The notes below the pieces were generated by a model. It searched no databases. It had not been told where the DNA came from and saw only the letters and a list, made by a program, of their open reading frames with translations. Source: Candidatus Omnitrophota bacterium (lineage in GTDB: Bacteria; Omnitrophota; Gorgyraeia; B26-G9; JBDRCZ01). Taken from it: a stretch of DNA of 64,000 bases. The DNA lies in NCBI GenBank assembly GCA_043821285.1, contig JBDRCZ010000017.1, positions 15,947 to 79,946 of the forward strand, read 5' to 3'. The translations under genes were made by a program, and so were the position numbers. This document shows positions 1,344 through 59,960 of the stretch, piece by piece (positions within the stretch are counted from its first letter, which is position 1; the number at the start of each line of letters is the position of its first letter).

Positions 1344-1408
1344 ATTATTGCCTTCAGCACTAATTTATTGACTACCTTTTCTTTTTCAAAGAAAAGAAAA
1401 AATAAAGT

Positions 1409-1562
1409 AACGGATTAACACTGATTAAACACAGACCTCGCCTATGCAGAGCTTCGGCGGGTATTTTGGGTAGTATTACTGTTAAGCAGGGGTCCATTAA
1501 AAATCCGTGCAACATCTGTGGCTAAAAAATATATGAAATTCACGCATTATTCAGAATAATCT
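1409..1562. repeat. CAC[ATG]GAT word array pair plus shared 30-nt block
   Basis: AACGGATTAACACTGATTAAACACAGAC (1409-1436) faces AAAATCCGTGCAACATCTGTGGC (1499-1523). AAATTCACGCATTATTCAGAATAATCT (1534-1562) matches 16468-16498. Confidence 0.65.
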
Positions 1563-1593
1563 CCTATAAAATTGTGGAAATCTGTGTATAAAT

Positions 1594-3228
1594 ATGTTTA
1601 GCGAGCCAGTTATAAAAGAAAAATTTTTCGGGCGCAAGCTGCTTCTGGACTTATTGAAAAAACGAATTGAGGCTTTTAAAAATGACTATCGCCAGAATGT
1701 TGCGCTGCTTGGACCGGAATTAATTGGTAAAACTTCCCTGGTATTAGAATTACTTAATCAACATAACGACAAGACGATTATTCCGGTTTATGTAGAGGTT
1801 AAATCAGAACCCCTGCAGTTTTTTGTGCAAAAATTCATTGGTGTCTTTTTAAACCGCTTTATCACCACGGTTGAACATCAATCTCCCGAAGATCTAAATT
1901 TGCTGATTAAAAAATGCCGCCAGCATGCCAGCAAAACTTATCTTGGAATTAAAGATGTTTTTTCCCATTTAGAAAATAATAATAATAATGAAGCCTTTGT
2001 TCGGTTACTGCAATTGCCGGTAATATTTTATGCCGAGACAAATAAACGCTGCCTGATTGCAATAGATGAGTTTCAGAATTTGGAAACTTTAAAAATCAAT
2101 AATCCATTTAAGGTCTTAAGTAATGCAATTATGATGCAAAAGACAACGATGTATATCATTACCAGCTCCTGGGAGGCAAAGGCCAGGCAAATATTGTCCG
2201 AAAAGCTTAGTCTGTTATTTGGAAATTTTGAAACCCTGCATATCACTTCATTTGATATGCCGACCAGTAAGTTTTTTTTGGATAAAAAACTTATGGATAT
2301 CGAAATGCAGGACCTGTGCAAGAAATTTTTATATAATTTAACCATGGGGAAACCATTTTATTTAGATTTGATTGTCGAACGTTTAAAACGCCTTTTTGCC
2401 GCAGATAAAACAAAAAAAATGACCAGAGAATTAATTATCGATGCATTAAATGATCTCTTGTTTGACCCGCGTGGCATATTACATCAGTACTTTGAACATC
2501 ATATCGGAACGTTTTTACAGAATCGTACGTACTGCACATTTTCTTTAATTTTAAATGCGCTTGCCGATGGACAAAAAAGGACAGCCGGTATTTCAAAATA
2601 TACCAATCGGCCGGTAAAAGACATCACACAACATCTCTCGCAATTGATCAATATGGAAATTGTTCAACGTAGCGGAAGCTTTAACCGCTTGCATGATCCG
2701 ATGTTGAAATTATGGCTGAAATATGTATATAAAACACGGCAACAGAATTATTCGACTAATCCACAGATGCTTTCTACCGCATTCAATATGGCGATTGATG
2801 ATAATTTTACCGCTTTTTGTGATACGGACCGTAAAAATTTAGGGGAAATTCTCTTGACACTTTTTGAATCTTTTGGCAATGAAATTGTAGAAATTGGCAA
2901 AAAAAGATTCAAATTGTCAAAATTTAAAAAAGTTGAATTAAAAAATCAATCGGGGTTCTGCTATATTATTGCTACTCCAGCCTCATCACAAAAACAATGG
3001 ATCTGCCTCTTGGAAAATAAACTGATTACGGAACAGGATATTATCGATTTTAGTCAATATCTGCGTAATGCTAAACTGCGCCCAATACGCAAGATTATTG
3101 TTACAATTCGCACGTTGGATGTTAATGCAAAACTGAAAGCATTAGAAGATAAGTTTATAATCTGGGAAATTGAAACTTTGAATTCGCTTTTGGATTTATA
3201 CAGCCGATGCGGCGTTGTTAGGTGGTAA
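1594..3228 (+). CDS. AAA-type ATP-binding protein (archaeal-ATPase-like, C-terminal extension)
   Basis: Walker A-like GPELIGKTS and Walker B-like CLIAIDEFQ in a 544-aa ORF. The family call is tentative. Confidence 0.55.
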   Translation: MFSEPVIKEKFFGRKLLLDLLKKRIEAFKNDYRQNVALLGPELIGKTSLVLELLNQHNDKTIIPVYVEVKSEPLQFFVQKFIGVFLNRFITTVEHQSPEDLNLLIKKCRQHASKTYLGIKDVFSHLENNNNNEAFVRLLQLPVIFYAETNKRCLIAIDEFQNLETLKINNPFKVLSNAIMMQKTTMYIITSSWEAKARQILSEKLSLLFGNFETLHITSFDMPTSKFFLDKKLMDIEMQDLCKKFLYNLTMGKPFYLDLIVERLKRLFAADKTKKMTRELIIDALNDLLFDPRGILHQYFEHHIGTFLQNRTYCTFSLILNALADGQKRTAGISKYTNRPVKDITQHLSQLINMEIVQRSGSFNRLHDPMLKLWLKYVYKTRQQNYSTNPQMLSTAFNMAIDDNFTAFCDTDRKNLGEILLTLFESFGNEIVEIGKKRFKLSKFKKVELKNQSGFCYIIATPASSQKQWICLLENKLITEQDIIDFSQYLRNAKLRPIRKIIVTIRTLDVNAKLKALEDKFIIWEIETLNSLLDLYSRCGVVRW

Positions 3229-3229
3229 A

Positions 3230-3718
3230 ATGAAAATTGGTATTTTATCGGATACACACATACATCTGCCAAAAGATAAAATCCCGGCAGCTTTAATTGA
3301 TGGACTAAAAAACGTTGATTTAATTTTGCATGCGGGTGATATATTGGATTTGGCGGTGATTAGAAAATTAGAAAAAATTGCCCAGGTTAAAGCAGTACAG
3401 GGAAATATGGATACCCCAGTGCTTAAAGAGATATTGCCGGAGAGAGAATTAATACGCGCGGAACAGATTAAAATCGGGTTAATCCACGGCTGGGGGCCGC
3501 CGGTCGGCCTATTAGATCGGGTAAAAGAGCTGTTTTATACAATGAAGGTGGATGTAGTTATATTTGGACATTCACATACCCCGATGATAAAAAAAATAGA
3601 TGGAGTTTTGTTTATAAACCCGGGCAGCCCGACAGATAAAATTTTTGCCCCTTACAATTCATATGTTGTTTTAGAGGTCAAAGGGAATAAAGCAGAAGCG
3701 CAGATTGTTAAGATATAA
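3230..3718 (+). CDS. YfcE/MJ0936-family metallophosphoesterase
   Basis: Motifs ILSDTH, HAGD, GNMD, GHSHTP. ATG 3230 is preceded by AGGTGG and starts 1 nt after the upstream stop (the track ORF begins at 3215). Confidence 0.8.
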   Translation: MKIGILSDTHIHLPKDKIPAALIDGLKNVDLILHAGDILDLAVIRKLEKIAQVKAVQGNMDTPVLKEILPERELIRAEQIKIGLIHGWGPPVGLLDRVKELFYTMKVDVVIFGHSHTPMIKKIDGVLFINPGSPTDKIFAPYNSYVVLEVKGNKAEAQIVKI

Positions 3719-3832
3719 CAACAATTAACAGTTTACGGTTTACAGTGAGATCGTGATGCGTAACTGTTGGCCAGGCAGAAATAAGTTATAACTTATAGGT
3801 AGTGTCAAAAATAAAATGAAAAACCGGAAAGC

Positions 3833-3904
3833 AACCACAGATTACGCAGATAGTTATAAAGATTTTAAGAGGGGAGAAAATCTGTGGTGAATGGATCAGT
3901 GGTG
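3833..3904. repeat. CCACAGAT-type word array, inverted pair
   Basis: Forward words AACCACAGATTACGCAGAT (3833-3851) face reverse words AAAATCTGTGGTGAATGGATCAGTGGTG (3877-3904). Confidence 0.6.
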
Positions 3905-4103
3905 AAAGAAAGAGAAAAAGATTTTCCATATTCAAGGAGATAATATACAAGATAATTGGTGCGGCAATGGAAGTCCACAAGTAGTTAGGATGTGGAATTC
4001 TTGAAGCAGTAGATGAAGAAGGAGTAAGTAGAGAATTTAGAAGAAAATGATTATTATTTAACATAGGTAGAGTTTCTTTAGAATATAAGAGAGTAATAAG
4101 GTA
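3904..4103 (+). pseudogene. GxxExxY-family (PD-(D/E)XK-like) gene remnant
   Basis: Translation ...FKEIIYKIIGAAMEVHK*LGCGILEAVDEEGVSREFRRK*LLFNIGRVSLEYKRVIR* follows the N-terminal pattern of GxxExxY proteins (xIIGAAxEVHxxLGxGxLExVY-like). It has two in-frame stops and is truncated. Confidence 0.5.
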
Positions 4104-4117
4104 GAAAATACACTTAT

Positions 4118-4196
4118 AACCACAGATTAAATCACCACAGATTTATACAAATAATTTAAAAGAATAAAATCATTTTAATCTGTGAAATCTGTGGTT
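4118..4196. repeat. CCACAGAT-type word array, inverted pair
   Basis: AACCACAGATTAAATCACCACAGATT (4118-4143) faces AATCTGTGAAATCTGTGGTT (4177-4196). Confidence 0.65.
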
Positions 4197-4257
4197 GCTT
4201 TAAAAGATATACGAAAGATTTTTGACAGAACCAACTTATAAACAAGGGGTAGTCGTA

Positions 4258-5079
4258 ATGAATATAAATGGTAACATCCCGGTATTTTTGGTTCAGGGTG
4301 AGACTCTCCCTGAAGTTTGGGAGCGCGCGGTTATTAAAATCTGGGAAAATGGGGTTGATATTAAAACAGAATATGATAAAAAAGACGATCCGCCAAGTAA
4401 AGATGCAACAATGACAATGGTTGTCAATCAACCTTTTTCCGAGCCAAGAATTCACCGTGCGTTTCCCGCAGGGCTGGAGGACCTTGAAATTTACAAGCAA
4501 GAGGTCGTCTATGGCGTTCATGACCATTGGATAAATCCAGAAGAAGGTAAATGGACATATACCTACCATAAACGTTTATTTGAATATGAAATCGAGCAGG
4601 AAATAATCAGACAAATAGATTATATTATTAAAAAATTATCACAAAACGGCTATTCCCGCCGTGCACAAGCAATAACATGGAATCCAAAACTTGACCCGCA
4701 GACTGATGATCCTCCGTGTCTGCAGAGAATTTGGTGCCGGCTTATGACCAATAGCGATGGAAAAAAGGTATTGAACATGAACACCCATTGGCGAAGCCGA
4801 GATGCGTATAAAGCAGCATTTATGAATATTTTTGCCTTGACGGAACTGCAGAAGCTGATTGCCGATAGAATATCCGAAATATTAAAATTCGAAGTTATTG
4901 TTGGCCGCTATGTAGATATAAGCGATAGTTTTCATATCTATGGTTCTTATTATCAGGAATTTCAGAAATTTTTAAATCTTGTTAAAAACCGAACATTTGC
5001 CGAGCGCACCTGGACGACGGAATTTGCCCAGAGTTTTTTTGACGAAGCTGACAAAAAACTACATGATCGTGCGGTGTAG
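4258..5079 (+). CDS. thyA: thymidylate synthase (ThyA) family protein, divergent/archaeal-like
   Basis: Collinear with ThyA core blocks: SRRAQAITWNP, PPCLQRIW (catalytic Cys context), HWRSRDAYKAAFMNI, DSFHIYGS. ATG 4258 is preceded by AAGGGG; the track start TTG 4222 is possible. Confidence 0.7.
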   Translation: MNINGNIPVFLVQGETLPEVWERAVIKIWENGVDIKTEYDKKDDPPSKDATMTMVVNQPFSEPRIHRAFPAGLEDLEIYKQEVVYGVHDHWINPEEGKWTYTYHKRLFEYEIEQEIIRQIDYIIKKLSQNGYSRRAQAITWNPKLDPQTDDPPCLQRIWCRLMTNSDGKKVLNMNTHWRSRDAYKAAFMNIFALTELQKLIADRISEILKFEVIVGRYVDISDSFHIYGSYYQEFQKFLNLVKNRTFAERTWTTEFAQSFFDEADKKLHDRAV

Positions 5080-5112
5080 AACATCAAAAATAATAAAAAA
5101 GAAAAAGATAAT

Positions 5113-5201
5113 GCCACAGATTTTCACTGATTGAACACGGATAAAAAACAAAAGACAAATATTAAATAAAAATCCGTGTTTCATTCGTGTGAATCCGTGG
5201 C
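5113..5201. repeat. CAC[ATG]GAT word array, imperfect 30-nt palindrome arms
   Basis: GCCACAGATTTTCACTGATTGAACACGGAT (5113-5142) versus ATCCGTGTTTCATTCGTGTGAATCCGTGGC (5172-5201). 22 of 30 positions are complementary by hand count; words are phased 10-11 nt. Confidence 0.7.
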
Positions 5202-5313
5202 TAAAAAAATAGTTAAACTACGCGTAACACAAATTAACACGAACAGCAAAGGCTTTATTCTTAAAAGGGTAGGTAATTTTTGACAGAACTTGCTGTCACA
5301 GCGGAGAAGATAC

Positions 5314-5796
5314 GTGGATAGGCTTTGGGCACCATGGCGGATAGCTTATGTTAACAAAAGGGTAAAGAGAAAATGCATATTTTGTATAGAAGCTAAAAAG
5401 ATAAATCTTAGAAAAAACTATATTGTTGAAACAGGCAGGTACAGTTTTGTGATTTTGAATATTTTTCCCTATAACAATGGACATTTGATGATTGTACCAT
5501 ACCGGCACTTGCCTGACGTCTCTATACTGAGAACTGAAGAGTGGAATGAAATGTTAAAATTTATTAAAATATATAAATCTTATCTCTCAAAAATACTTAA
5601 TCCCGACGGCTATAATCTGGGTATAAACATTGGACGCGCGGCTGGGGCCGGTTTTGCCAACCATGTGCATTTACATATTGTTCCGCGCTGGATCGGGGAT
5701 AGTAATTTTATGCCCGCGATAACAAAGACTAAGATAATCTCTCAGTCACTCGATGAATTGTATAAGCAGTTAAAAAAATGGCAGAAAAAGAAGTAA
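5314..5796 (+). CDS. HIT-family (histidine triad) nucleotide hydrolase/transferase
   Basis: Histidine triad [10 protein letters not shown] and an N-terminal LWAPWR block. GTG 5314 is preceded by GGAGA; a longer ORF from TTG 5290 is possible. Confidence 0.75.
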
Positions 5797-7322
5797 TATT
5801 AATTCTTGATTTTGGCTCTCAATATACCCAGTTAATTGCCAGACGCGTGCGGGAACTGGATGTTTATTCAGAGGTCTTACCGGCAAATGCCGCATTTAAT
5901 CTTATAAAAAAACATAATCCTTGCGGGATAATCCTCTCTGGCGGACCGGCTAGTGTTTATAAAGATTGTGCGCCAGAGTGCCATAAGGAGATCCTGCACT
6001 TAGGAATTCCGATTTTAGGCATCTGTTATGGCATGCAGTTAATCGTAAAATTTTTTGGCGGGCAAGTAATATCAGGACATAAACGGGAATATGGGCCAGC
6101 CAAACTCAAAATTATAGATAAAACGGATTTGTTTTATAAAATTGATACAACAATAAGCTGCTGGATGAGTCATGGTGACCGGGTCAATACTTTACCGGAT
6201 GATTTTAAGGCGCTTGCTTACACGGATAATTCTCGATATGCAGCAATTGCTAATAAAAGGCTTAATATTTACGGCGTACAGTTTCATCCGGAGGTTGTCC
6301 ATACCCCCTGTGGAAAAAAAATTATTCATAATTTTTTATATAAAATCTGCAGCTGTCAAGGTGCATGGTCAGTAACATCTTTTATTAAGGAAAAAATAAA
6401 AGAAATTAAATCAACCGTAAAAAACTCAAAAGTTATCCTGGGATTAAGCGGCGGAGTCGATTCCGCGGTTGCGGCAGTATTAATCCATCAGGCGATTGGC
6501 CGACAGTTAACCTGCATCTTTGTCGATAATGGACTGTTAAGACTTGGCGAGCTGAAAAAGGTTAAGGAAACATTTACCAGAAATTTTAATATAAATTTGC
6601 ATTGTCTGGATGCCCGCAGGCAGTTTTTGAAGAAACTTGCCGGGATTACTGATCCGGAACAAAAACGGAAAATAATTGGTAAGCTGTTTATCCGCGTATT
6701 TGAACAGGAAGCAAGAAAAACCGGCAACATCGAATACCTTGCCCAGGGCACGTTATATCCGGATGTCATCGAGAGCCGTTCCGTGTTTGGCGGACCGACC
6801 GCTAAAATAAAATCCCATCATAATGTCGGCGGGCTTCCGGAAAAGATGCATTTAAAATTGCTGGAACCGTTTAAATTTTTGTTTAAAGACGAAGTACGGC
6901 AAGTCGGTAAAAAAATGGGACTGGCTGCGGAAATTATCTCCCGTCAGCCGTTCCCCGGTCCGGGGCTAGCCGTTAGAATTATTGGTGCGGTAACTGAAAA
7001 TAGACTCGATATTTTGCGAAAGGCAGACCGGTGTGTGCTCGAAGAGATAAAAGCCAGTGGCCTTTATCAGCAGATATGGCAGGCATTTGCCGTGCTCTTA
7101 CCAATAAAAACAGTCGGGGTAATGGGCGATGAACGTACATATGAGAATGTTATTGCATTAAGGGCCGTTACCAGTTTAGATGGGATGACCGCAGACTGGG
7201 CAAGATTACCGTATAATGTCCTGGAAAAGATTTCCAATCGTATTATCAATGAAGTTAAAGGTGTTAACCGGGTAGTATACGACATTAGCACAAAACCACC
7301 GGCAACGATTGAGTGGGAATAA
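5778..7322 (+). CDS. guaA: GMP synthase (glutamine-hydrolysing)
   Basis: GATase block [18 protein letters not shown]...CYGMQ, ATP-PPase SGGVDS, conserved C-terminus ...PPATIEWE. Overlaps the HIT gene by 19 nt. Confidence 0.95.
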
Positions 7323-7331
7323 GTAATAAAA

Positions 7332-7361
7332 AGTATTGCGTATCGAGCATTGCGTATTGCG
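7332..7361. repeat. heptad array TATTGCG/TATCGAG/CATTGCG/TATTGCG
   Basis: Four consecutive 7-mers, the reverse complement of the array at 7479-7522. Confidence 0.7.
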
Positions 7362-7478: not shown

Positions 7479-7522
7479 CGCAATACTCAATACTCAATAC
7501 TCAATACTTAATACGCGATACG
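7479..7522. repeat. heptad tandem array CGCAATA-(CTCAATA)x3-CTTAATA-CGCGATA
   Basis: Six consecutive 7-mers read directly from the sequence. The array ends 6 nt before the dnaE ATG. Confidence 0.8.
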
Positions 7523-16263: not shown

Positions 16264-16421
16264 TACACAGATGATCAGGAATAATGCGTGAAAACACTAT
16301 TTTTAATAGCCTTTTCAGACGACAACTGTGTAAAAGTTTTTAGCAAAAGTGTAGAATTTATCGAAACTTGATTTTTTGCATGCTCTTAAATGCAAAGGCT
16401 GATGAAACAGGGAAAGATAAA

Positions 16422-16498
16422 GCCACGGATTAACACTGATTGCACTCGGATAAAAAAAGACGAGGCCTAAATATTAAATTCACGTATTATTCAGGATA
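16422..16498. repeat. CAC[GT]GAT word array plus shared 30-nt block
   Basis: GCCACGGATTAACACTGATTGCACTCGGAT (16422-16451). The block AAATTCACGTATTATTCAGGATAATCT recurs at 1534-1562 with 2 mismatches. Confidence 0.65.
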
Positions 16499-16525
16499 AT
16501 CTGTGTTTTAAGTGGTTTAAAGGGC

Positions 16526-16554: not shown

Positions 16555-16738
16555 TAAAATATGAAGTATAAGTTGTAATTAAAGATTTAAAAAGTGTGTT
16601 GTATTCAAAAAAGGGGGATAAATTTCCCGTAAAAGGAACAGGGCGGATCATCAAAGAAGTGCGCGTGATATCCGCCTAACAAACTGGCGGATTAAATTCC
16701 CCGCCAAAAGACATGGCGGGTCATTTAAAGGAGGGGGA

Positions 16739-23390: not shown

Positions 23391-23439
23391 GCGAAATTGT
23401 CTTCGCCCCGCCACGGCGGCGGATCTTCGACAATTTCGC
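23391..23439. repeat. 11-bp perfect inverted repeat enclosing a GC-rich nested hairpin
   Basis: GCGAAATTGTC (23391-23401) pairs with GACAATTTCGC (23429-23439). The interior contains CCCGCC-AC-GGCGG and the word GGCGGATCTTCGA. Confidence 0.6.
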
Positions 23440-27147: not shown

Positions 27148-27954
27148 TTAAATAACTTCAAAGCTAAGCCCCCAGCATAGCTGGGGGCTTAGCTTTGAAG
27201 TTATTTTTTTCTTTTCCTTATCAGATATGCTATTTTCTTCAGTTATAAGTTTCAAAATTAACTGAGAGGGCTTAACGGATTGTTTTAATTTTCTTAGATC
27301 CGGCAAGTCACGTACCTTTTTATTTGTATCTACATATTTATTTTTTATTTTCATGGCAAACGCTTCATCTCCCAGAATACAGCCTTTTAACGTCAGTTTT
27401 TGCAAAGGGAATTTTTCTTTTAACATTCCTGCTGCAACAAACTGCCGATATGATTTTTTGCTCTCAAAAGAAGCCATTATGGTTTTTGTTTCCATGTAGT
27501 TAGGCAATATTTTTGAACCAACATAGTAATGATAACTGCACCAGGGATATTCATAAGGTGTATTAGATAATCCGGCAGCGACGGCGTTAAGATGTATGTA
27601 GCGTGACAGTTCATTAAGGTATGCATCTTTATCAACAACAATTGCTTTATATCTGCCTTGAAAGAGGTGTCCTACCCTCTTTTGTGCTTTATTATAATAT
27701 GTGGTGTAGCTTGAATTTATATACTGCATGCACCGGCTTAAATTAGCATATGGAGTTTCCATAAGCAAGTGATAATGATTAGGCATTAAACAATAGGCAT
27801 GAATTATAAAGCTAAAACGCAGGTATGCATTTTTAATATAAAATAAAAACTTATCTTTATCATAATCAGTAGTAAATATTTCATTTTTATCATTTCCTCT
27901 GGCACTGATATGATAAAAGGCTCCTGGATATTCAATTCTTAATGGTCTAGCCAT
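27148..27954 (-). CDS. IS200/RAYT-like Y1 (HUH) transposase family protein
   Basis: YHISARGN, HUH motif PNHYHLLMETP, and GHLFQGRYKAIVVD with the catalytic Tyr context. The last ~18 codons are encoded by the hairpin at 27151-27205. Confidence 0.75.
   Translation of the reverse strand: MARPLRIEYPGAFYHISARGNDKNEIFTTDYDKDKFLFYIKNAYLRFSFIIHAYCLMPNHYHLLMETPYANLSRCMQYINSSYTTYYNKAQKRVGHLFQGRYKAIVVDKDAYLNELSRYIHLNAVAAGLSNTPYEYPWCSYHYYVGSKILPNYMETKTIMASFESKKSYRQFVAAGMLKEKFPLQKLTLKGCILGDEAFAMKIKNKYVDTNKKVRDLPDLRKLKQSVKPSQLILKLITEENSISDKEKKKITSKLSPQLCWGLSFEVI
27151..27205. repeat. 26-bp perfect hairpin (3-nt loop)
   Basis: AATAACTTCAAAGCTAAGCCCCCAGC-ATA-GCTGGGGGCTTAGCTTTGAAGTTATT, followed by a T-run on the plus strand. 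Confidence 0.85.
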
Positions 27955-29628: not shown

Positions 29629-29794
29629 CCACGAATGGTACAAAAAGCAGCGTTAATGACGAATGACGAAATCAGAACATTAAAATAAAAAACTCAAAAA
29701 AAGAAAATTAAATTTTAGCCACGAAATACACGAATCGCACGAAAAAAGAAAAGAGAATAAAAAGAAAAATATTTAACCACGAAGATCACGAAGT
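29629..29794. repeat. CCACGAA/CACGAA word arrays
   Basis: CCACGAA (29629), GACGAATGACGAA (29658-29670), GCCACGAAATACACGAATCGCACGAA (29718-29743), AACCACGAAGATCACGAAG (29776-29794). Phasing is 9 nt. Confidence 0.65.
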
Positions 29795-32820: not shown

Positions 32821-33140
32821 ATTACATATATGCTTTCATTCTCGTATTGAGTATCGCGTATTAATGTTTTAAATTCGAAATCCGAATATCTAAATGTTTA
32901 GAATTTGCCATTCGTCATTATAAGTGTTTTATTTTATCTATCTAGTTGATCCTGTCTAATTCGTTCTCGTATTGCGTTTTTTTATTGTCGTCTACTTGTT
33001 TTTATACTCAATACTCGATACACAATACACAATGCGTTGTTTAATCATTTCTCTCCGTGTTCTCTGCGGCTCTGTGTGATAAATTTTAGCTTTTATTTTC
33101 TGTCTTCTGAATTCTGATTTCTGTTTTCTGCTGTTAACTG

Positions 33141-39581: not shown

Positions 39582-40054
39582 AAGTTAATAGCCTATCAGT
39601 TAATTCCAAATGTTCCGCCTATCAAACCGGCGGACAGGCAAATAATAAAATCCAAATGACAAATGAATCATTTAATATCTCAATCTAAAAATCAAAATGA
39701 TATATTAAAATTCAAATATTTTTCTCTTTGACAGGATTTACAGGATTAACATGATTTTTTATCCAGTTAATCCTGTCTATTTTCTTATTTTCTCTGTGAA
39801 CTTTGTGTTCTCTGTGGTTATAAATTTTTTTATTTTTTTTAATCGTAATACTCAATACATGCTACTCAATACGCATTACTTTTTATAGTGTGCTCTCTGT
39901 GGTTAAAATATTTTTTGTTTTTTTATCTACATAATCATCCGTATTCTACGCTCTCTTTTATATGCACTATTTTCATTACAATCATACATATTGTAACCGC
40001 TAATAATTACAATCTGTTAAATATATTTATAACAATTTTAATATATACAAGTAA

Positions 40055-40082
40055 AGTATACCATATTTTTCTGATTTTTCAA
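40055..40082 (-). promoter_or_regulatory. sigma70-like promoter for G2(-G1)
   Basis: Minus strand reads TTGAAA, 16-nt spacer, TGG-TATACT (extended -10). Near-identical to 59561-59589. About 470 nt upstream of the G2 ATG. Confidence 0.6.
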
Positions 40083-40421
40083 GGATTTTGCTAAAAAAAT
40101 ATAGAAAATAACAGATTAAAAGATTCAGGTGATCACGGTTTTAAAACAGTATCAAGGCATTATTTATAACTTATTTATTTATAATATATTATAAAATAAT
40201 TATCGAATATGCCTACATGTTAATTATTCGTGAAATTCGTGTAATTTGTTGTTTAAAAATAAGCAGTTAAAGTTTTTCTTTGTGTGATAAATTTTATTTT
40301 TTACCGCAGAGAAAATCTAAAAGAAATCTCGTTCACAGATGTATGTAAGTTACATCCACTTTCTATTCTTAGTGCGTTACGTAAACGGTAAACTGCCTGC
40401 CTCCCGTTAGGGAGGTAAACT

Positions 40422-40446
40422 AAAAAATTGCCATAGGCAATTTTTT
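40422..40446 (-). terminator. terminator hairpin after G3
   Basis: Minus strand reads AAAAAATTGCC-TAT-GGCAATTTTTT then AGTTTACC. Overlaps the stop codon by 2 nt. Confidence 0.55.
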
Positions 40447-43400
40447 AAATTGCCCGTTCAATTTCAAACAAATCTGCTATCTCTCTCTTCTCCAGTTTTG
40501 TATCTGATCCATTTATGCCTACCCTATAGCCAGTGTGTCTTTCTTGGGGAGCAACTATTAGAGAATAAAGAGCGTGTAGTAACAGCATATCAGAATCAGA
40601 AATATGAGGGTCTATATTTTTTGCTTCTAATATTGATTCATCATCGCTTATTATTTCTTGTATAATTGTTTTTACTATATCTCTATCTTCAGCTCTGCAT
40701 TTTTCATGAATTGCATTCAGACATTGTTCAAAAAATGGTCTGAGCATCATAAGCTGAACATTATCTTCTTGTGTATATGCATTGGCAACTGCTTTTGTAA
40801 CTGTTTCTAAAACAGTTTGCCGGTAATCTGGTCTTACCGTATAGATATTATCAAAAAAGATAAAAGTCCCGGCTGCGGCTTGTGGCATTATTGTCTTGTT
40901 TAGTATCTCATTAATAACATTTCGAGGAAAATATACTAAAATACTTAATAATTTATCTATTGTAGTATTACTTGGGGTTAAACCTTGCTGCTGGATCAAC
41001 TCTTGATATTTTCTTCCTATGATTCTATGCATAGATTCAAGACTTCTTCTATTTGCATTTATCATTAAATTATTTCCTTTAACTGCTGTAACTAAGTCCG
41101 TTAATTCGCTTCGTATCATTTCTCGTTCTTTCTCAAATACATCCGTATCTTCGTTCCTCTGAGATATAAATAACCCTAAAAATTCAAGTTCTAATGCTTT
41201 TTTAAAGGCATCTTCCGAAGTAAATGCGTTTAATCTAACAGTAATATTTTCTAACAACATTAGCTCAAAGCTGGTACCTTGACGAAAAATATGTTTTAGA
41301 AATTTTTCTGCATTAGTAAATTCGGGTGAAAAGATGATTTCTCCACTGACACCATCTACTGTTTTCTCCATCACTTCATTTATCAAATTACCTACTGAAT
41401 CTAAGTTGTGAAACTCGTTTAATCTATTTTCATCTTGTATAACAGCTCTTAAATAAACCTCCATTCTTAAAAGGTAATCAGCCAAAAAAACACCATCAAT
41501 TGCAAAACGTATATTTTCATTCGTATCTTGAGTTCTTGCAGTCAAGGCTTGATAAAGAAAATCATCTATATCGGTCAACATTCTATAAAAGATTTCCATT
41601 GCTGTTTCCTTATCCTGTTTTAGAGCAAGTTCGAGGACATTATTAACATTTGAAAAATCTCGTGAAATATACTCCTTAATTACATCACATAACGCATTGA
41701 ACAGTGGTTTTTTATCACGACGGTAAATAGCAAAACTTAGCCTAATAAATGCTGCTAATATCTCATGGGAATTAAATCCTGAATTTATTAAATAACTTTG
41801 CTCCTTTTCTATATAGATTGGTATAATTTTAGAAACGTCATATCCCGCAATAACTGTGTAAGCAACTGCAGCAAAAATAAGATTATGTGTTTCTGCATCA
41901 TGTTTAGGAATGTTTATTCGTTGTAAGATTTCTCCTAATACTTCTCCTGCCTCAGTAGTTCTCTCCTCTTTTCCTTCAATCTGCGCTTTTATTTTATTAG
42001 TAAAAAATTCAAAAACAAAATCAGGTTCTGCCTTAAGATACGCTTCTATTGTTTCCCAATCTGCTGCTAATAAATTACGCAGTTTTTGGATTTTATCTTG
42101 AACCACGATTAAGTTATTTCGTAGATTGCTTATTTTTTTCTGATTTTTTCTCGTTTGTTTTTGCTCTTTGTTTATGGTTTGCTGAATAGTTCTTTCATTG
42201 CTTTGGCGACGATTAAGTGCCTGCGTCCTTGTAATAACTCCTTCTAAGAGGATTGTTACTTCAGAGAGTTTTTCTCTACGCGCTTTTACTGCCGGGGGCA
42301 TATCTAAAAGTAGAGGTTCCCTTGTTGTCACTGGAGCCTGCCATGCTGGAAGTTCTTCAGATGCTACTTGCATAGCAGCAGCGCCTTGAAGGACCTGAGG
42401 ATATAATGAATGTTTTTGCATTGGGTCTTCAACTAACATAAGCTCACAACTTTGAGGCGGTTTGAGAGCATTAATTCTATTTTGGATAACTACTCCCAAT
42501 CCCCAAGCCCATTCTGCTTGACTTTTATATAAATCAACTAAGGCTTCAATATCCTCACTTTCGTTTATAATTGCGGTTATTCTCTCTACCAGAGGAGCCC
42601 GGCTGTTTCTGTTAGGATAGGTATTAAGCATTTGATATAATTCAGGTATATTACTTAAATCATTATAACCGAGTAATCTTTTTCTCAGTACCTCTGCTAT
42701 TACCCCCCTTATTTGCTTACATCCGTAGGTATATTTATTTATAGAATTATCTGTAAGTAAACGAAGCAGGTTTTCGATATCTAAGGAAAACACTTGCCTG
42801 ATAATACCGAAAATAATATATATTTCTACTTCAGAGTGAATTTTTTTACTAAGTAAATTAGCTAATGCAGCAAGTGCCTCGCCCCCCCATTTACTAACCA
42901 TCTCCTGAGCAATAGCTTGAGCTTGTGTTTTGTCATTATTTTCTGCTTGCTGACGTTTAAATCTATCGGAAATTGCGGTTAATCGTTCAATGCCATCTTC
43001 AATCGAAGAAACAGTTAGGTGTATTTCTGATATTTTTCCTTGAGAAGCAATACTATTACTTAATTGTGCGGCTGCTGCTTGCTTTGTTTTCTGGGGTAAC
43101 CTTGGATTTCGTGACCACTCTGAAAGCAAGCGATCATTTACTTCTGCTAATCTTTTTGCAGTGCTTAACGCCTTAATTCTATACCAAAGATAATTATTCC
43201 AGTATTCATCGTCCCATTCTTGGCTTAGATACACATCAACTAAGGCAACAATATCTTGATTATTTTTTATTATATGTTTCATCCTTCTTCTTGCCAGATC
43301 TTTAATGTCTTCGTTCGGACATAATGTTTCATTATTAATAACATAATATAATGCAGAAATACTTGTTACGTTTCGAGGAATGCTAACAGTTTTTATGATA

Positions 43401-47536: not shown

Positions 47537-47854
47537 ATGTTAATACCCTGTTAGTTAATTCCAAATGTTCTAATTCAAGATTTAAAAATTCCAAGATTCC
47601 AGATTCTAAAATTATAAAATTCCCCGCTACAAGGTCGAAGATCCGCCATCGTATTAGTGAAGAACGCTGGCGAACAGGCAAATTCTCTAACCTTCGGCAA
47701 GTAAAACGTTTTGAATCGTTAAATCTTAAAATATTCAAATTTTGGAATTGTTTGTTTTATTCTTCTGTCTTCTATTCTCTACCTTCTGTTTTCTGCTTTC
47801 AATCAGCTGTATCAGTAAACGGTAAACTGCCTGCCTTCCATTAGGGAGGTAAAC

Positions 47855-47879
47855 TAAAAAATTGCCGCAGCAATTTTTT
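47855..47879 (-). terminator. terminator hairpin after G4
   Basis: Minus strand reads AAAAAATTGC-TGCG-GCAATTTTTT then AGTTTACC. Confidence 0.55.
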
Positions 47880-50800
47880 AGATTGCTTGTTCTACTGCCA
47901 ACATTTCATTCCACTCTAACTCTGTAAGTGCAGGGGGTTGTTTAGGCATTGTTGTCAATTGTCCTGGGTTATTATCATGAGGATCCAGTCTTTGCTGCTC
48001 TACAATCTTTATTGCTGCTTCAATAATCGCTGCAGTGTCCATCTTATGTGCACGGTATAATATCTCGTGACTTCTTGCGGATTGTCCCCAACCTTGGATT
48101 CCTAACGAAGTTACAGTTGAACCAGTTGTAAGCAGAGATGAAGTTACTACCTTACTTACTGCTCCGCTTAATATTTTTGGAGAAGCGTCTTGAACAGTAA
48201 TTATTGGCACTCCCCGTTCAAGAAGAGGTGGTAAAGCTTCATCGATTAAATCCAATCTGGTCAAATTTATTACTTTTGCGGTAATATCTTGACTTTCCAA
48301 TTGTTCGCTCGCGGCAATTGCAAATTCCACCATTGCTCCGGCAGCAATAATAATAATATCGCTATTTTGTCCGTTTTCTCTTGGATCTTTAATTACATAA
48401 GCACCTTGTTCTGGACTGGGATTTTCTCCTCTATTTAAAACTGGAACATTTTGACGGGTAAGCTGAAGATAAGAAGGTCCTTTACCATCTAATGCCCTGT
48501 GCATAGCAAAATCTACTGCTTCTTCAGCCTCACGGGCATCTGCAGGTATAAAACCAGTCATTTTTTGCAAAAAAGAAATATAGCGAATAACGCCAGCAAC
48601 GATTACTGACTGATGAGTAGAACCGTCTGGCCCAACGCCTAAGCCGGCATGACTTAACGCAACAATTACCGGTAGTTTTGCCCGGGCAATCACAATTATT
48701 TGACTAATCATTCGGTTAGCAAAACAATCAAAGGTTGCGATAACTGGTATCTTACCATATAATGCTAATCCAGCAGCAATTCCTGCCATTGCTTGTTCTC
48801 TTACTCCGGATGGAACGTATCTTCCATTGGTGTTATGACGAGAAAAAATGCCAAAGTCCCTAGCAAACCAATTCAGTCTTGTAGAACTGGCAATGTCCGC
48901 GCAGAAAGCAATAATCTTTTCGACGCGTTTTCCCCAGTCAAGCATCCTGTTACCAAAACCATCACGTGTAGCAAAATTCCTATTTGCTTGGTATCTAATT
49001 TCTGCCGGTGTTTGTAGCATTGTCATTTGAACCGGCTCTGGCTCTTGTGTTTGTTTAATGTTGCTATAAATAAGCAGATTGAATTCCCCAATCTTATAAG
49101 GAACCATTCCATTCAATGCTTCCATAATTGTTGTGGCCATGATGTGTTCATCAAAACCCCGGGTAATAATTAAAACAGGTTTTCCTGTATTATCCTTGTT
49201 TAGCTGTTCAAAGGTTTGACCTAAGATTTCAGCCTGTTCTTGATTATTATTAGCATTGAGCTCAATCACTCTCCAACCATAAGCTTGCCAAATATTAACT
49301 AATTCCGTGTTTGTCTCTGAAGCTTGAAGGACTAAGCAGAGATTATCTATGCCATTGTGTGCGGCGAATCTAGCTGTTTCTGCAAACTGACCTTCTCTTT
49401 CTTCTTTTTCCGTGGCTAAAGCAATAACTCTGCCAGATGCTGTATCCATTTTAGCTCCAAAAGCTATACCTGCGGCCAGAGAAAGACGCATACCCGCAGG
49501 GAATATTTCTTGAGGACTAAAATCTATTTTCATAAGCCCGTCCGTGGGTTTTTCTTTTCCATCAACTAATTCTTTTGCTACTTCTATTATATTTTCAATA
49601 TCCTTGTCACTCATGGACCAAACAACGGAACCTGCGGTTTTAGAAGATGAAGTTACAGTCCTGCTTACCGCATCACCTAAACATACTGGCAATCCATCAT
49701 AAATTGTAAGAATACGGCTTCCTGGCTCAATATACTCTAAGAGCTCACTTCCTGCACCTAATGAGTCTAATTGCGTAACATTTATGATCTTAGTCATCGT
49801 ACCTTGTGATTCTAACTCATTACTGACTTTTATGGTTTGATGAAGACTTTTACCTGAAGAAATAAGAATAACCCTCTTTTTTGCCGTGTCCCACCCTTCA
49901 GATTGACTTATAACATAGGCACCTTGCTCTGGCTGGGGATTTTCTCCTCTATCTATAACCGGAAGATCTGCAGAACTTAAACGAATATAAGAAGCAGTGT
50001 ACTCATCTGGGATATTAAGTGATGTAGGGGCTTTATTTGTTATTTTAGCCAATAATAATGCATTTTTTATTGCCATATCAGTCAACTCATTAGTTTCATT
50101 AGGATCCCCTGGTTCTAACGCAATTACATTATGCATCAGGTCCATAACTCCTGGGGTAAAACTTAACTCTTCAGATTCAGCCGCTAAAATAAACGGTACC
50201 CTTGCCTGAGCATTTATCCTTAATTGGTCTAACATTTTCATCGCATCATTTTCCGGCAGAAAGACAATCGGCAGCATACCCGAATAACCAAACCCAGCAG
50301 CAAAACTGGCTAAGTGCTGTTCTCTATCCTCAACTAAGAAACATCGCTCGATGAGTTTATTTCTTATATCTTCATCAGTAATCTGTGCAATAAATTCATC
50401 AATAAATCTTTGTTTAGAATCGGAATTATTAAAAATAAATACTATCCGTTCATCTTTTTCTGCCCACTGGAGTAGTCTATTTTTAAATGCAACAGATGGA
50501 GAGACTTCCTCATCCTGTGCATAGTTGGTTCTATCTGGTATTGTTGTCGTGTCTGTTTTTTGTAGAGTACTCTCTTTTGATAAATTGTTTTCTTCTTGTT
50601 CTGTCATTTGGTTATCTGAAATAAATCTATCTACATCTGTTGAAAATCCATAAAAATTCATTTGTTGACTAATATTTTCAATTGTGTTTTCTATTTGGGG
50701 GATAGCTTCAGATAGTTCTTTATCATTTAATGCTCTACCGTGAAACGCGGTTGGATCATCTTCCATAAAATCTACGCCTTTACCTTTTTTTGTCTTGGCA

Positions 50801-53553: not shown

Positions 53554-53751
53554 GATTTGTAGATATGTTTATCCATTCCAGATTTTAAAATTCCCCGCCA
53601 TAATGCGTTGACAGGCAGATTCAAAATTTAAATATTTTCTTTGAAACAAGTGTCACATGATTAATCTGATTTTTTATCCTTCTTTATCCTATTAATCCTG
53701 TCTATTTTTTCTGCTTTTTTGTCTTCCAAATTCTGACTTCTGTTTTCTATC

Positions 53752-55232
53752 ACAGTACTTTGTTAAAAATCAGGTCTTTTCAAAAAAATCATTTACGTAA
53801 GTCGTGAAAACTCATAACTTATGTAATTTCAATACTTTACGTTAATTTTTTCCTTGACAATATCCACAACTCCTGCTATGGTATATAGTTGTAATCAAAC
53901 CACCGTAACACACAACAGGAGGTGGATATGGGTATTTTTAATCTCACTATTTCGGTAATCAATAATTTCTTATTTCGTTTTAAACCTGCCTTCTCAAAAA
54001 AACAATTTATCGTTTTCTCCTTCCTGATCTATGCTTTGTTTAAAGACTACAAGAGAAATTCCCTTTATGCCCTCGCCTCTAAAACTCCAATCAACTATCA
54101 GGCTTGTCAGTACTTCTTATCTGAAGGAAAATGGAGTATCGATGATCTTAATAATATAAGGTTAAAAATTATTGAACATCAAAGAACTACTTCTGCTACT
54201 TCCTCCGGCGTCTTAGTTATTGATGATACTTCTCCTAAGCCTTTTGCTAAAGCTACCGCCGGTGCTAAACGTCAACACTGTGGTGTCTTAAATCGTGAAG
54301 AAATCTGTAATGTTGCTGTATTCTCTGCCTTCGCCTCCAAAACTAAACGCTTCCCGATAAACCTTAAATCTTATCTCCCCGCTGAAAAATTCTTATTTGG
54401 CAAAGAGGATGTAGATTTTAAAAGTAAGCTCGATCTTGCCCAAATATTAGTCGATGATGCCTTAGAAAGAAAAATTAAATTCTCTTCCCTCGTCATAGAT
54501 GCATGGTATGCTCAGTCTTCACAATTCCTTGAGTTTGTTCACTGCCAGAGAAAACTGCCCTTCATTGGTGAATTAAAGTCCAATCGTAACATCTTCTTTT
54601 ACCATCCGCTAAAGCGGAAACACTGCTGGATCCAGCAGGATGAGCTGGTGAAACTCATCAAAAAACATTATCCGCATAAGTGTAGGTTTTTTACCTCCAC
54701 GAGCAAAGATGGTAAGAAGAAGTCTTGGGTCTTCTACACCTTCAAGGGACTGCTGAAAGATTGTTCTGTTCCCTTAAGCATAGTGGTGATCTTTGGTAAG
54801 TGGGATAATCAGGATGATAAGAATGTTCATATCCTTATCTCCAATCAGACCCGCCTGGCTACTAAGACCATCATTTCCACCTACCTGCTTCGTTGGGGAA
54901 TAGAGCTTATCTTCAGGGAGCTCAAGGATGTCTTCTCCTTTGACCAATACCAGGTTAGACATACCAAACAGATCGAACGTTACTAGACACTATGCCTTAT
55001 TGCATGGAGCCTGTTATATTGGGTCAAACAAAATGCCTATCTTACCAAAATCCTTGAGCATAAACCTGCTACCTTCTATGACTACAAACAGGCCATTGAC
55101 TCCTTACTCCTTTATGATGCTCATCAGTCTCTTTCAAAGAACAGTCATCTTGCTCAGAAATATTTTAAAATTAAATCGGATAATTTTAAACAGCAAATCG
55201 CTCGCGTTGCCTGATTTTTAACAAAGTCCTGT
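53752..55232 (+). mobile_element. IS4/IS701-like insertion sequence (1481 bp)
   Basis: 23-bp terminal inverted repeats ACAGTACTTTGTTAAAAATCAGG (53752-53774) and reverse-complement ACAGGACTTTGTTAAAAATCAGG (55210-55232), 1 mismatch. Direct 6-bp flanks TCTATC (53746-53751 and 55233-55238). Confidence 0.8.
53922..55214 (+). pseudogene. DDE transposase (IS4/IS701-like) interrupted by an in-frame TAG
   Basis: VLVIDDTS, LVIDAWY, YLLRWGIELIFRELK blocks. TAG at 54984-54986, after which the same frame continues 75 codons (TLCLIAWSLLYWVKQN...QQIARVA) to TGA 55212-55214. Confidence 0.65.
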
Positions 55233-59036: not shown

Positions 59037-59560
59037 AATAAATATCTCCAGTTATTTAATTTTAAATGTCCCGCCTATCAAACCGGCGACAGGCAAATGA
59101 ATCATTAAATAATTCAATCTTTAAAATTTATTTATGTAATTTGTGTGATTTGTTGTTAATAAAATAAGTACTTGAAATCTTTCTTTGTGTGCTCCGTGTC
59201 TCTGTGTGACAAATCTAATATTTTTGTTTCGCTTGTCCGCCGTGCTCTGTTTGGCGGGTCATTCTGGTTTCGTTATTCGTTATTAAATTATCCTGTCTAT
59301 CATCCACAATGATTGGCGGATCTTCAATTTTTTATATTTTCTCTGTGAACTTTGCGAGCTCTGTGGTGATAAATTTTTTATTTTTTTTTACCGCGATACT
59401 CAATACTCATTGCTTTTTATAGTGTGCGCTCTGTGATGATAATTTTTGTTTTGTTTTTTTAGCCACAATGCTCAATACACAATACCCGATACTTAATCAT
59501 ATTACTTTTCATAATGCCTTGTTATAAATAAATTTATAACATCTTTTAAATAGTTTTATA

Positions 59561-59589
59561 AGTATACCATATAATTACGCAATTTTCAA
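59561..59589 (-). promoter_or_regulatory. sigma70-like promoter for G5(-G4-G3)
   Basis: Minus strand reads TTGAAA, 17-nt spacer, TGG-TATACT. About 520 nt upstream of the G5 ATG. The flanks match the G2 promoter region. Confidence 0.6.
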
Positions 59590-59935
59590 GGGTTTGGGGA
59601 AATTTTTTTTGATTTTGTGATTTCTATGCTTATTGTTTTAACTATTTGGTATTAAAAAAGATATGGCATAGAAAATTAACAACAGCATTATTTAGGCAAG
59701 AATTGATTATATTTTTATTAAAGAAATAAATTGTAAGAGAAAATAATTATTACGATTAGATTTTATTGATTCTAAAATTTTAAATAAATTTTAACTTTAT
59801 TTTTCACCACAGAAAACACTGAGCCCACAAAGAAAAACTTGATACAAATCATACAAATATTTACATGCATAGCCTTCTTCCGTATAATCTGATTCTGCCT
59901 GCCTCCGGTAGGACGGTAAACAGTAAACGGTTAAC

Positions 59936-59960
59936 AAAAAGTTGCCATAGGCAACTTTTT
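59936..59960 (-). terminator. terminator hairpin after G6
   Basis: Minus strand reads AAAAAGTTGCC-TAT-GGCAACTTTTT then GTTAACCGTTTACTGTTTACC. Confidence 0.55.

Follow-up and report, generated by a model that had tools for sequence, protein, structure and literature searches.

Phased-word hairpins in the spacers of an Omnitrophota genome and their possible descent from a palindromic element carrying a GxxExxY nuclease gene

Repetitive extragenic palindromic (REP) sequences and REPINs, which go with a REP-associated tyrosine transposase (RAYT), are short imperfect palindromes that lie between genes and consist of two inverted units; they are multi-copy and presumably parasitic, and possibly pass through a single-strand hairpin intermediate (PMC3116915). 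MITEs (miniature inverted-repeat transposable elements) are small, lack coding capacity and have terminal inverted repeats and A+T-rich flanks (possibly TA), with gene-less copies outnumbering gene-carrying ones. Repeats of the heptamer TAACTGA are known from Beggiatoaceae, Cyanobacteria and Bacteroidetes (PMC4679880). Integron cassettes join a small promoter-less gene to an attC site, a strand-specific imperfect palindrome with unpaired bases that falls into sequence-diverse classes, and free-standing homing endonuclease genes are single small nuclease genes, widely spread by horizontal transfer, that sit between housekeeping genes. Here we describe imperfect hairpins built from phased CACNGAT words in the spacers of a 64,000-nucleotide stretch of a Candidatus Omnitrophota bacterium genome (contig JBDRCZ010000017.1, positions 15,947 to 79,946; hereafter the window, whose own numbering is used below). 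Comparison with other genomes leads us to lean, with limited assurance, to the view that these hairpins are gene-less and partly decayed miniatures of a palindromic mobile element that, when complete, carries a gene for a GxxExxY nuclease.

The element seems to belong to the small palindromic mobile repeats but is a member of no known family tested. REPs and REPINs are built on one palindromic unit, whereas here three phased words follow a GCCAC head, the loop of 0 to ~490 nt accepts nested elements, the sequence crosses phyla and domains, and the associated gene encodes a PD-(D/E)XK protein. Unlike in MITEs, no known transposase goes with these ends, nothing but a 120-aa nuclease core is carried as cargo, and the word-array ends change by 10-nt units. 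Short tandemly repeated repetitive (STRR) sequences and the TAACTGA repeats also consist of short spacer words found in several phyla and suspected of horizontal spread, but they are head-to-tail heptamers or units of 21-27 nt, while our elements combine a 7-nt word with a 3-nt linker, form facing hairpin arrays and are tied to a nuclease gene. In contrast to integron cassettes, there is no integrase or attI nearby, the gene has a hairpin at either side or lies within one, and the majority of copies are gene-less. Homing endonuclease genes have neither phased-word inverted-repeat brackets nor abundant gene-less palindromes. When a parent insertion sequence with the same ends and a known transposase was sought, none was found, the GxxExxY gene being the only one seen between such ends. 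Literature searches on GxxExxY, PDDEXK_3, the element sequences, STRR, MITEs with PDDEXK and intervening-sequence proteins, made in an incomplete library, returned no description of the element.

In the window, CACNGAT (both strands counted) occurs 21 times in 8,786 intergenic nt and 20 times in 55,214 coding nt, a 6.6-fold higher density in spacers (binomial p = 1.3e-8). With a first-order Markov model of spacer sequence, 2.1 occurrences are predicted (maximum 9 in 1000 trials), and five same-strand neighbour pairs lie 9-11 nt apart where 0.00 are expected. The related words CCACAGA and CACAGAG are enriched 20-fold and 34-fold in the spacers. The original prediction, made from the letters of this DNA alone, had proposed intergenic word arrays phased by about one helical turn, and both enrichment and phasing exceed these controls. 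The words are present in the spacers it named, and so are all four of the array starts it described as a T-run followed by AGCCAC. Its picture of arrays facing each other holds for 1409-1523, 3833-3904, 4118-4196, 5113-5201 and 16422-16505 but not for 29629-29794, where only forward CACGAA words occur; the proposed 9-11 nt spacing is likewise the general case, with two window spacings of 15 nt (3880/3895 and 4121/4136).

The window hairpins are listed in Table 1 with their similarities to one another and to a profile of element arms. Against this profile, the copies at 5113-5201, 16422-16452 and 1410-1522 scored E = 2e-9 to 8e-3, and those at 3833-3904 and 4118-4196 form a looser subfamily (E = 0.03 to 1). 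Judged by sequence, the window arrays are related copies of one family rather than independent arrays of words.

Table 1. Hairpins, word arrays and associated features of the window. The arm profile was built from copies in other genomes only; a colon marks the end of the element.
Feature	Position	Strand	Sequence and layout	Similarity
Copy A	1410-1522		Left arm ACGGAT-TAA-CACTGAT-TAAA-CACAGA (1410-1436); facing right arm ATCCGTG-CAAC-ATCTGTGGC (1503-1522), then TAAAAAA; loop filled by an unrelated G+C-rich hairpin (~1437-1497)	Arm profile: 1410-1435, E = 1.6e-5; 1502-1526, minus strand, E = 0.008. Match to the 16417-16450 arm: 82% (blastn)
Partial second right arm	1531-1590	+	TTCACGCATTATTCAGAATAATCT plus TTGTGGAAATCTGTG	Homologue of the right part of copy E; 1531-1562 vs 16471-16502: 90.6% identical (blastn)
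Hairpin B	3833-3904		CCACAGAT subfamily; directly upstream of the nuclease gene relic; left arm AACCACAGAT-TAC-GCAGAT (3833-3851), right arm ATCTGTGGTG..ATCAGTGGTG (3880-3904)	Inverted homologue of hairpin C: 3828-3903 vs 4119-4201, 68.7%, E = 1e-5
GxxExxY (PF13366) relic	3928-4053	+	Decayed N-terminal fragment with two in-frame stops, between hairpins B and C	
Hairpin C	4118-4196		Directly downstream of the relic; left arm AACCACAGAT-TAAATCA-CCACAGAT (4118-4142), right arm ATCTGTG-AA-ATCTGTGGTT (4178-4196)	Arm profile: 4175-4194, minus strand, E = 0.03
Copy D	5113-5201		Best preserved; 30-nt arms (5113-5142 and 5172-5201) with three words each, 77% complementary; 29-nt A-rich loop; flanks AAT:GCCAC and GTGGC:TAAAAAAA	Arm profile: left E = 1.9e-9, right E = 1.4e-7
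Copy E	16422-16505		Left arm GCCACGGATTAACACTGATTGCACTCGGAT (16422-16451) intact; right arm (16479-16505) degenerate	Arm profile: E = 9.6e-9. Whole-length homology with copy D, loop included: 16414-16505 vs 5105-5212, 71.9% over 96 nt, E = 3.6e-11 (blastn)
Outer inverted partner of the degenerate right arm of copy E	16266-16297	+	CACAGATGATCAGGAATAATGCGTGAA; encloses copy E	16265-16302 vs 16469-16506, inverted: 79% (blastn)
guaA-dnaE spacer hairpin, other word family	7331-7361 / 7479-7509		ATTGCGT/ATTGAGT and repeated CAATACT; 31-nt arms, 117 nt apart, 87% complementary	
Solo CACGAA arrays	29629-29794	+	Period of 9-10 nt, no facing arm; one starts TTTTAGCCAC (29713-29745)	
Giant-gene leader solo arrays	59350-59480		CTCTGTG(G), which is CCACAGAG on the minus strand; TTTTTTTAGCCAC then CAATAC-type words on the plus strand	Equivalent stack at 39790-39905

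The structure of the element is clearest in 51 complete copies from other genomes, which are 59-550 nt long and whose interiors often hold nested word-hairpins. Both ends consist of a ~30-nt inverted repeat with three CAC-N-GAT words that starts TTA:GCCAC; read from the outside in, the consensus of either end is TTTTA:GCCAC[G/A]GAT - T[T/C]A - CAC[T/G]GAT - (T)GA(A) - CAC[G/A]GAT. Terminal inverted repeats that bound a short, multi-copy, non-coding unit are a MITE-type trait. The left flank is T-rich and the right flank A-rich, with TTA: and :TAA in 36-40 of the 51 copies, a pattern compatible with a TA duplication or with a palindrome that extends further. Neighbouring words lie 10 nt apart in 138 of 170 cases and 11 nt apart in 25, so that the one-turn phase noted for the window is also the rule elsewhere. 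The 11-nt spacings are concentrated in one of the two arms, and the element therefore has a polarity.

Exact matches to the 21-mer GCCACRGATTNNCACTGATTG, which copies D and E have in common, were found in species-representative genomes at more than 102 loci (a lower bound), in more than 12 bacterial phyla and in Methanosarcinales, where about 2 chance matches would be expected from the collection size of 596 Gb. Among the matches listed are KSB1, Calditrichota, Omnitrophota, Planctomycetota, Acidobacteriota, Nitrospirota, Ignavibacteria, Bacteroidota, Chloroflexota, Pseudomonadota, Desulfobacterota and Deferribacteres, with records from Brocadiia, Pirellulales, Phycisphaerae, Anaerolineae, a cultured Herpetosiphon, Gallionellaceae and Desulfobacterales. 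In two metagenome-assembled genomes (MAGs) of Methanosarcinales, the matching loci have only the 55-nt element in common. At least 20 copies are spread over separate contigs of one MAG. A plasmid search with the element (blastn) gave nothing at E <= 0.01. We also looked at 80 metagenome loci (630 kb) that carry a 62-72% identical relative of the gene adjoining hairpins C and D. Because these loci hold a single word cluster, with 79 of the 80 lacking any, the arrays are not a conserved feature of these genes; the elements represent an expansion in some lineages. Missing beside the same neighbour gene and yet present beside unrelated genes in many phyla, they are unlikely to be sites of a local regulator.

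Between hairpins B and C, an open frame can be traced over 3907-4101, with a translation that reads IIYKIIGAAMEVHK, a stop and then LGCGILEAVDEE. Four GxxExxY proteins matched it in tblastn (E = 0.002-0.016, 40-47% identity). Only about residues 7-65 are recognisable and the catalytic half (D..ExK) is missing, so it is a relic and not a gene. Intact genes occupy the same place elsewhere. In Desulfobacterales, one locus has arms around a single gene and no other, which encodes a 121-aa GxxExxY protein (TIGR04256, PF13366); at a second arm-enclosed locus the GxxExxY gene lies in the opposite orientation. The gene stands exactly between arms in L057, L084 and L199. We then sampled GxxExxY genes regardless of their flanks, from metagenomes, a viral contig, Deferrisoma camini and the plasmids or secondary replicons of eight cultured bacteria. 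Phased word arrays flanked the gene in all 16 independent loci, of which six belong to cultured isolates; the gene either lies within a single hairpin or has a hairpin on each side. The words are C[A/G]C-N-GAT at ten loci, C[A/G]CAGAG in Bernardetia, Bacteroides finegoldii and one Gemmatirosa copy, and GGACTGAAGAA, CGCGAA[A/G], CAAATC or TAATCC at the rest. The 1.3 Mb of retrieved loci contained only two GxxExxY genes, both inside such arms; four arm pairs 1.7-2.5 kb apart have ordinary genes between them and no cargo. The gene has been found between conserved housekeeping genes (pyrB-pyrF and fabD-fabG). Its horizontal spread is wide; for PF13366, clades in which bacterial and archaeal members mix are on record (PMC3424549). 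A profile of the nuclease gave no match to solved structures, and libraries of defence and phage proteins gave only weak similarity to the Cas4 core. We know of no cleavage activity on record for GxxExxY proteins.

Copies are frequently nested and change by whole words. In the MAG with at least 20 copies, many are composites, in which CACGGAT arms enclose CAGTTTA arms, which in turn enclose GGCAGAAT arms, and the whole composite can lie within a further outer hairpin. The same nesting occurs in the window, with an inner hairpin in 1410-1522 and an outer repeat around 16422-16505. Cyanobacterial small dispersed repeats, too, reportedly nest in one another. An 81-nt extra segment in nested copies had ambiguous boundaries when a target duplication was sought. 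Two 99% identical Deferrisoma loci (L196, from Deferrisoma camini, and L197, from a metagenome scaffold) differ by a 10-nt indel, CACAGATGGA, in columns 227-236 of alignment A2, which corresponds to one word plus linker; the only other length difference in ~1.7 kb is a single T in a T-run. The nuclease stop codon at these loci lies inside the TTTTAG:CCAC terminus of the next hairpin. Because of this indel, we conclude that arrays grow and shrink by 10-nt units, and this accounts for the two to three word copies seen per array.

In the element that we envisage, ~30-bp inverted-repeat ends would begin at a T-run plus A followed by GCCAC and would present three 7-bp words which, because the period is 10 bp, should share one face of the helix. 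In full length, the element would hold a single gene between these ends, that of a ~120-aa PD-(D/E)XK nuclease of the GxxExxY family, and 3833-4196 in the window may be a decayed example. The phased words could serve as tandem protein-binding sites, the likeliest protein being the nuclease, by itself or as a multimer. The element would move as DNA, probably by way of a strand-specific intermediate in hairpin or cruciform form, and would insert into A+T-rich spacers and the loops of hairpins already present, leaving copies that the flanking genes presumably do not require. A tentative part of this picture, which we would sooner doubt than assert, is that both recognition of the words and their spread are the work of the nuclease itself. 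We hold just as loosely the broader proposal of minimal selfish elements, new to description, in bacteria, archaea and possibly viruses, whose sole gene encodes a ~120-aa Cas4-like PD-(D/E)XK nuclease that reads the ends, with strand-specific spread into spacers and hairpin loops. Such elements could also lie behind nested repeats in the spacers of many uncultured lineages, and perhaps behind the gene-bearing intervening sequences in the hairpin loops of rRNA genes.

Contigs of the IMG/VR collection, which may not all be true viruses, contain a looser pattern, three phased words, in more than 120 stretches, which give 183 arms over 1.07 Mb. The exact 21-mer was absent from them, and a scan for relatives of the nuclease gave only 2 loci. 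In eight of the 13 viral loci with at least three arms, all arms lie on one strand, even across changes of gene direction (L227 and L246); relative to the genes, arms are antisense in L248, L265, L263 and L289 and sense in L229. This strand uniformity argues against a role in transcripts and fits a DNA-strand-specific process, such as that of elements moving by way of single-stranded hairpins.

Several observations weigh against descent of the hairpins from a nuclease-carrying mobile element. No pair of an empty and a filled site was found, the best metagenome relatives being only 62-72% identical, so that we infer rather than observe both mobility and a possible target duplication. Ten contigs with one and the same nuclease gene had identical flanks. 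The TTA and TAA flanks may be a mere part of the palindrome. The window itself carries only a nuclease pseudogene, and three of its five hairpins fold weakly (z = -0.5 to -2.9, with -2.9 for the minus-strand RNA of hairpin B and -2.3 and -1.6 for copy E). In the viral contigs, no GxxExxY gene was found in the 1.07 Mb that bear arrays and only 27% of the 183 arms have a facing partner; arrays thus persist without a nuclease in cis and possibly without hairpins, and their uniform strand could instead come from some role in phage genomes. With ~120 aa, the nuclease is no more than a bare core, and to our knowledge neither transposase nor homing activity is on record for it. Nuclease identity is 51% within a word class against 36% between classes (permutation p < 0.0002), but the class-A proteins were mostly found by homology to one query, so that sampling colours this link between clade and word, and simple co-inheritance would explain it equally well. 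In any case, gene and arms are passed on together as one unit across phyla.

The original prediction had left a choice between recognition of the words by a protein and a long imperfect RNA hairpin. If the hairpins were structured RNA, a spacer transcript folded in this way would be processed, for example by RNase III, would stabilise the mRNA or would control translation of the enclosed or downstream gene. In keeping with this, two window copies fold far better than shuffled sequences, with z = -7.4 and -6.7 as RNA (-4.3 as DNA) for copy D (5105-5212) and -4.95 and -4.79 (-3.58 as DNA) for hairpin C (4110-4205), all window hairpins lie between co-directional genes, and at some loci the nuclease start codon comes 2-3 nt after the third word. 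There is also a mild excess of G-U pairs on the top strand (67, against 37 on the bottom strand), although it stems largely from one consensus difference common to related copies. The arms of the 51 complete copies are paired at 81% of positions, yet 162 of their 266 mismatches (61%) are transversions, near the two thirds expected at random, substitutions show no wobble bias, and the central base N of the words shows no covariation, being Watson-Crick paired across the stem in 33/51, 18/45 and 20/29 cases where 25, 18 and 17 are expected of independent arms. What is conserved across phyla is the sequence and not the structure, which together with the one-turn phase favours recognition by a protein, the first of the two options. 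Element polarity agrees with the direction of the flanking gene in only 42 of 68 calls, a weak bias, and varies between sense and antisense in viral contigs as described above. Rfam detected only the tRNA at gathering score and nothing relevant at E <= 5 in 1350-5300. The stems have a T-run before and an A-run after them, the reverse of a terminator. An RNA role is for these reasons improbable to us. A CsrA-type GGA site was rejected, as many words read AGA or TGA. It is also conceivable that the hairpins are intrinsic terminators or chance low-complexity sequence, since they lie downstream of genes in a genome of 36% G+C. A terminator scan detected no terminator-like site at the elements, A-runs follow the stems, and enrichment and phasing far above the Markov controls together with exact 21-mer matches across phyla refute this explanation, whose probability we put close to nil.

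The phased words, conserved as sequence, would also suit a host or phage protein with a cellular role (in nucleoid structure, replication, packaging or transcription), with nucleases merely settling at its binding sites. Many viral arrays are solo arrays on the same strand without hairpins or nuclease, and solo arrays are stacked in the leaders of giant genes, as this explanation would have it. Arrays are not kept beside the same gene in relatives, however, and adjoin functionally unrelated genes; no candidate protein is common to bacteria, archaea and phages, and the nested, decaying and truncated copies resemble the debris of parasitic DNA. We therefore judge a cellular role unlikely. The link to a RAYT that had been suggested fared no better. 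The window does contain a RAYT-like gene (27148-27954, minus strand) for a 268-aa Y1 transposase (NF047646, 75.7 bits against a cut-off of 80), which could move REP/REPIN-type repeats in trans through single-stranded hairpins, and the elements are indeed intergenic imperfect palindromes with two inverted arms. Single-strand transposition, as in the IS200/IS605 family, yields a strand-uniform orientation like that of the viral arms. The flanks of the RAYT-like gene, however, hold no CACNGAT arrays, only an unrelated 27-nt palindrome. REPs typically have a GTAG head, whereas our ends start GCCAC, and REPs are lineage-specific to their own RAYT, whereas the same sequence is found here in more than 12 phyla and in archaea; the gene between the arms encodes a PD-(D/E)XK nuclease and not a Y1 transposase. 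RAYT flanks, REP head and lineage specificity, the three defining traits, thus all speak against REPs, and we consider a RAYT origin quite improbable. Clustered regularly interspaced short palindromic repeats were rejected, as the repeats are not regularly spaced direct repeats, and so were integron attC sites, given the lack of an R/L core, the GCCAC/GTGGC ends and the lack of a recombinase among 30 window proteins scanned.

The window is chromosomal. Housekeeping genes (thiC, tRNA-Gly, guaA, dnaE, hisS and aroB) lie on the plus strand up to ~25 kb, beyond which large minus-strand open reading frames (ORFs) prevail. The tRNA-Gly(CCC) gene (973-1047) overlaps the final bases of the thiC ORF call (86-982). 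Around copy D, the order in 4258-7322 is thyX-like gene, hairpin D, HIT gene and guaA; in relatives (L144, L157, L113 and L114) guaA immediately precedes the thyX-like gene, with a 13-nt spacer in L144. The palindrome at the RAYT-like gene is perfect, has a 3-nt loop (27150-27206) and overlaps the last codons of that gene. A DDE_5-family transposase gene (53922-54986, plus strand) stands between two giant ORFs, and the 150 nt upstream of it hold no CACNGAT-type words. In 16640-16725 and 23391-23439, the motif GGCGGAT / GGCGGGTCAT is repeated ahead of a PilZ gene and recurs in a 22-nt inverted repeat before a GNAT acetyltransferase gene.

Other word families form similar arrays, several of which begin with the same terminus, a T-run plus AGCCAC or AACCAC. 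CACGAA is enriched 8.2-fold in the spacers, and CACGAA arrays also adjoin CACNGAT elements in KSB1, Herpetosiphon and Methanosarcinales loci. The right arm of the guaA-dnaE spacer hairpin contains a true 7-nt tandem repeat, CAATACT x3 (7484-7505), which is STRR-like. Six very large minus-strand ORFs (995-2363 aa) lie in 29833-63891, and the spacers upstream of them (32821-33140, 39582-40444, 47537-47877, 53554-53921 and 59037-59958) are related stacks of solo word arrays, with CTCTGTG, CAATACT and TTCTGT words, an ACAGGAT hairpin at 39730-39777 and CCGCC..GGCGG hairpins. The three occurrences of CCACAGAG are all on the minus strand upstream of giant minus-strand ORFs. Three of these ORFs have in common a 3' hairpin, aaaaattgcc-ata-ggcaatttttt (40414-40454, ~47860-47880 and 59940-59960). 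The viral loci L229, L223 and L246 have the same layout as the giant-gene spacers: solo CACNGAT arrays, then arrays of other words (ACGAATGG, GGGTAATTAT, GAACGAGGAAC), then a Shine-Dalgarno sequence and a start codon.

For annotation, the arrays matter as a source of spurious low-complexity ORFs and as an explanation of many spacer repeats in MAGs. It is unusual for a 30-nt non-coding sequence to be recognisable from Omnitrophota-like bacteria to Methanosarcinales, and such conservation implies either a conserved protein that recognises it or frequent transfer between lineages. The GxxExxY family, with thousands of members and up to dozens per genome, gains a testable candidate substrate, namely hairpin DNA with three phased CACNGAT words. 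If the nuclease does move or home into hairpins, the elements would be among the smallest autonomous mobile elements and would provide a practical marker of horizontal transfer.

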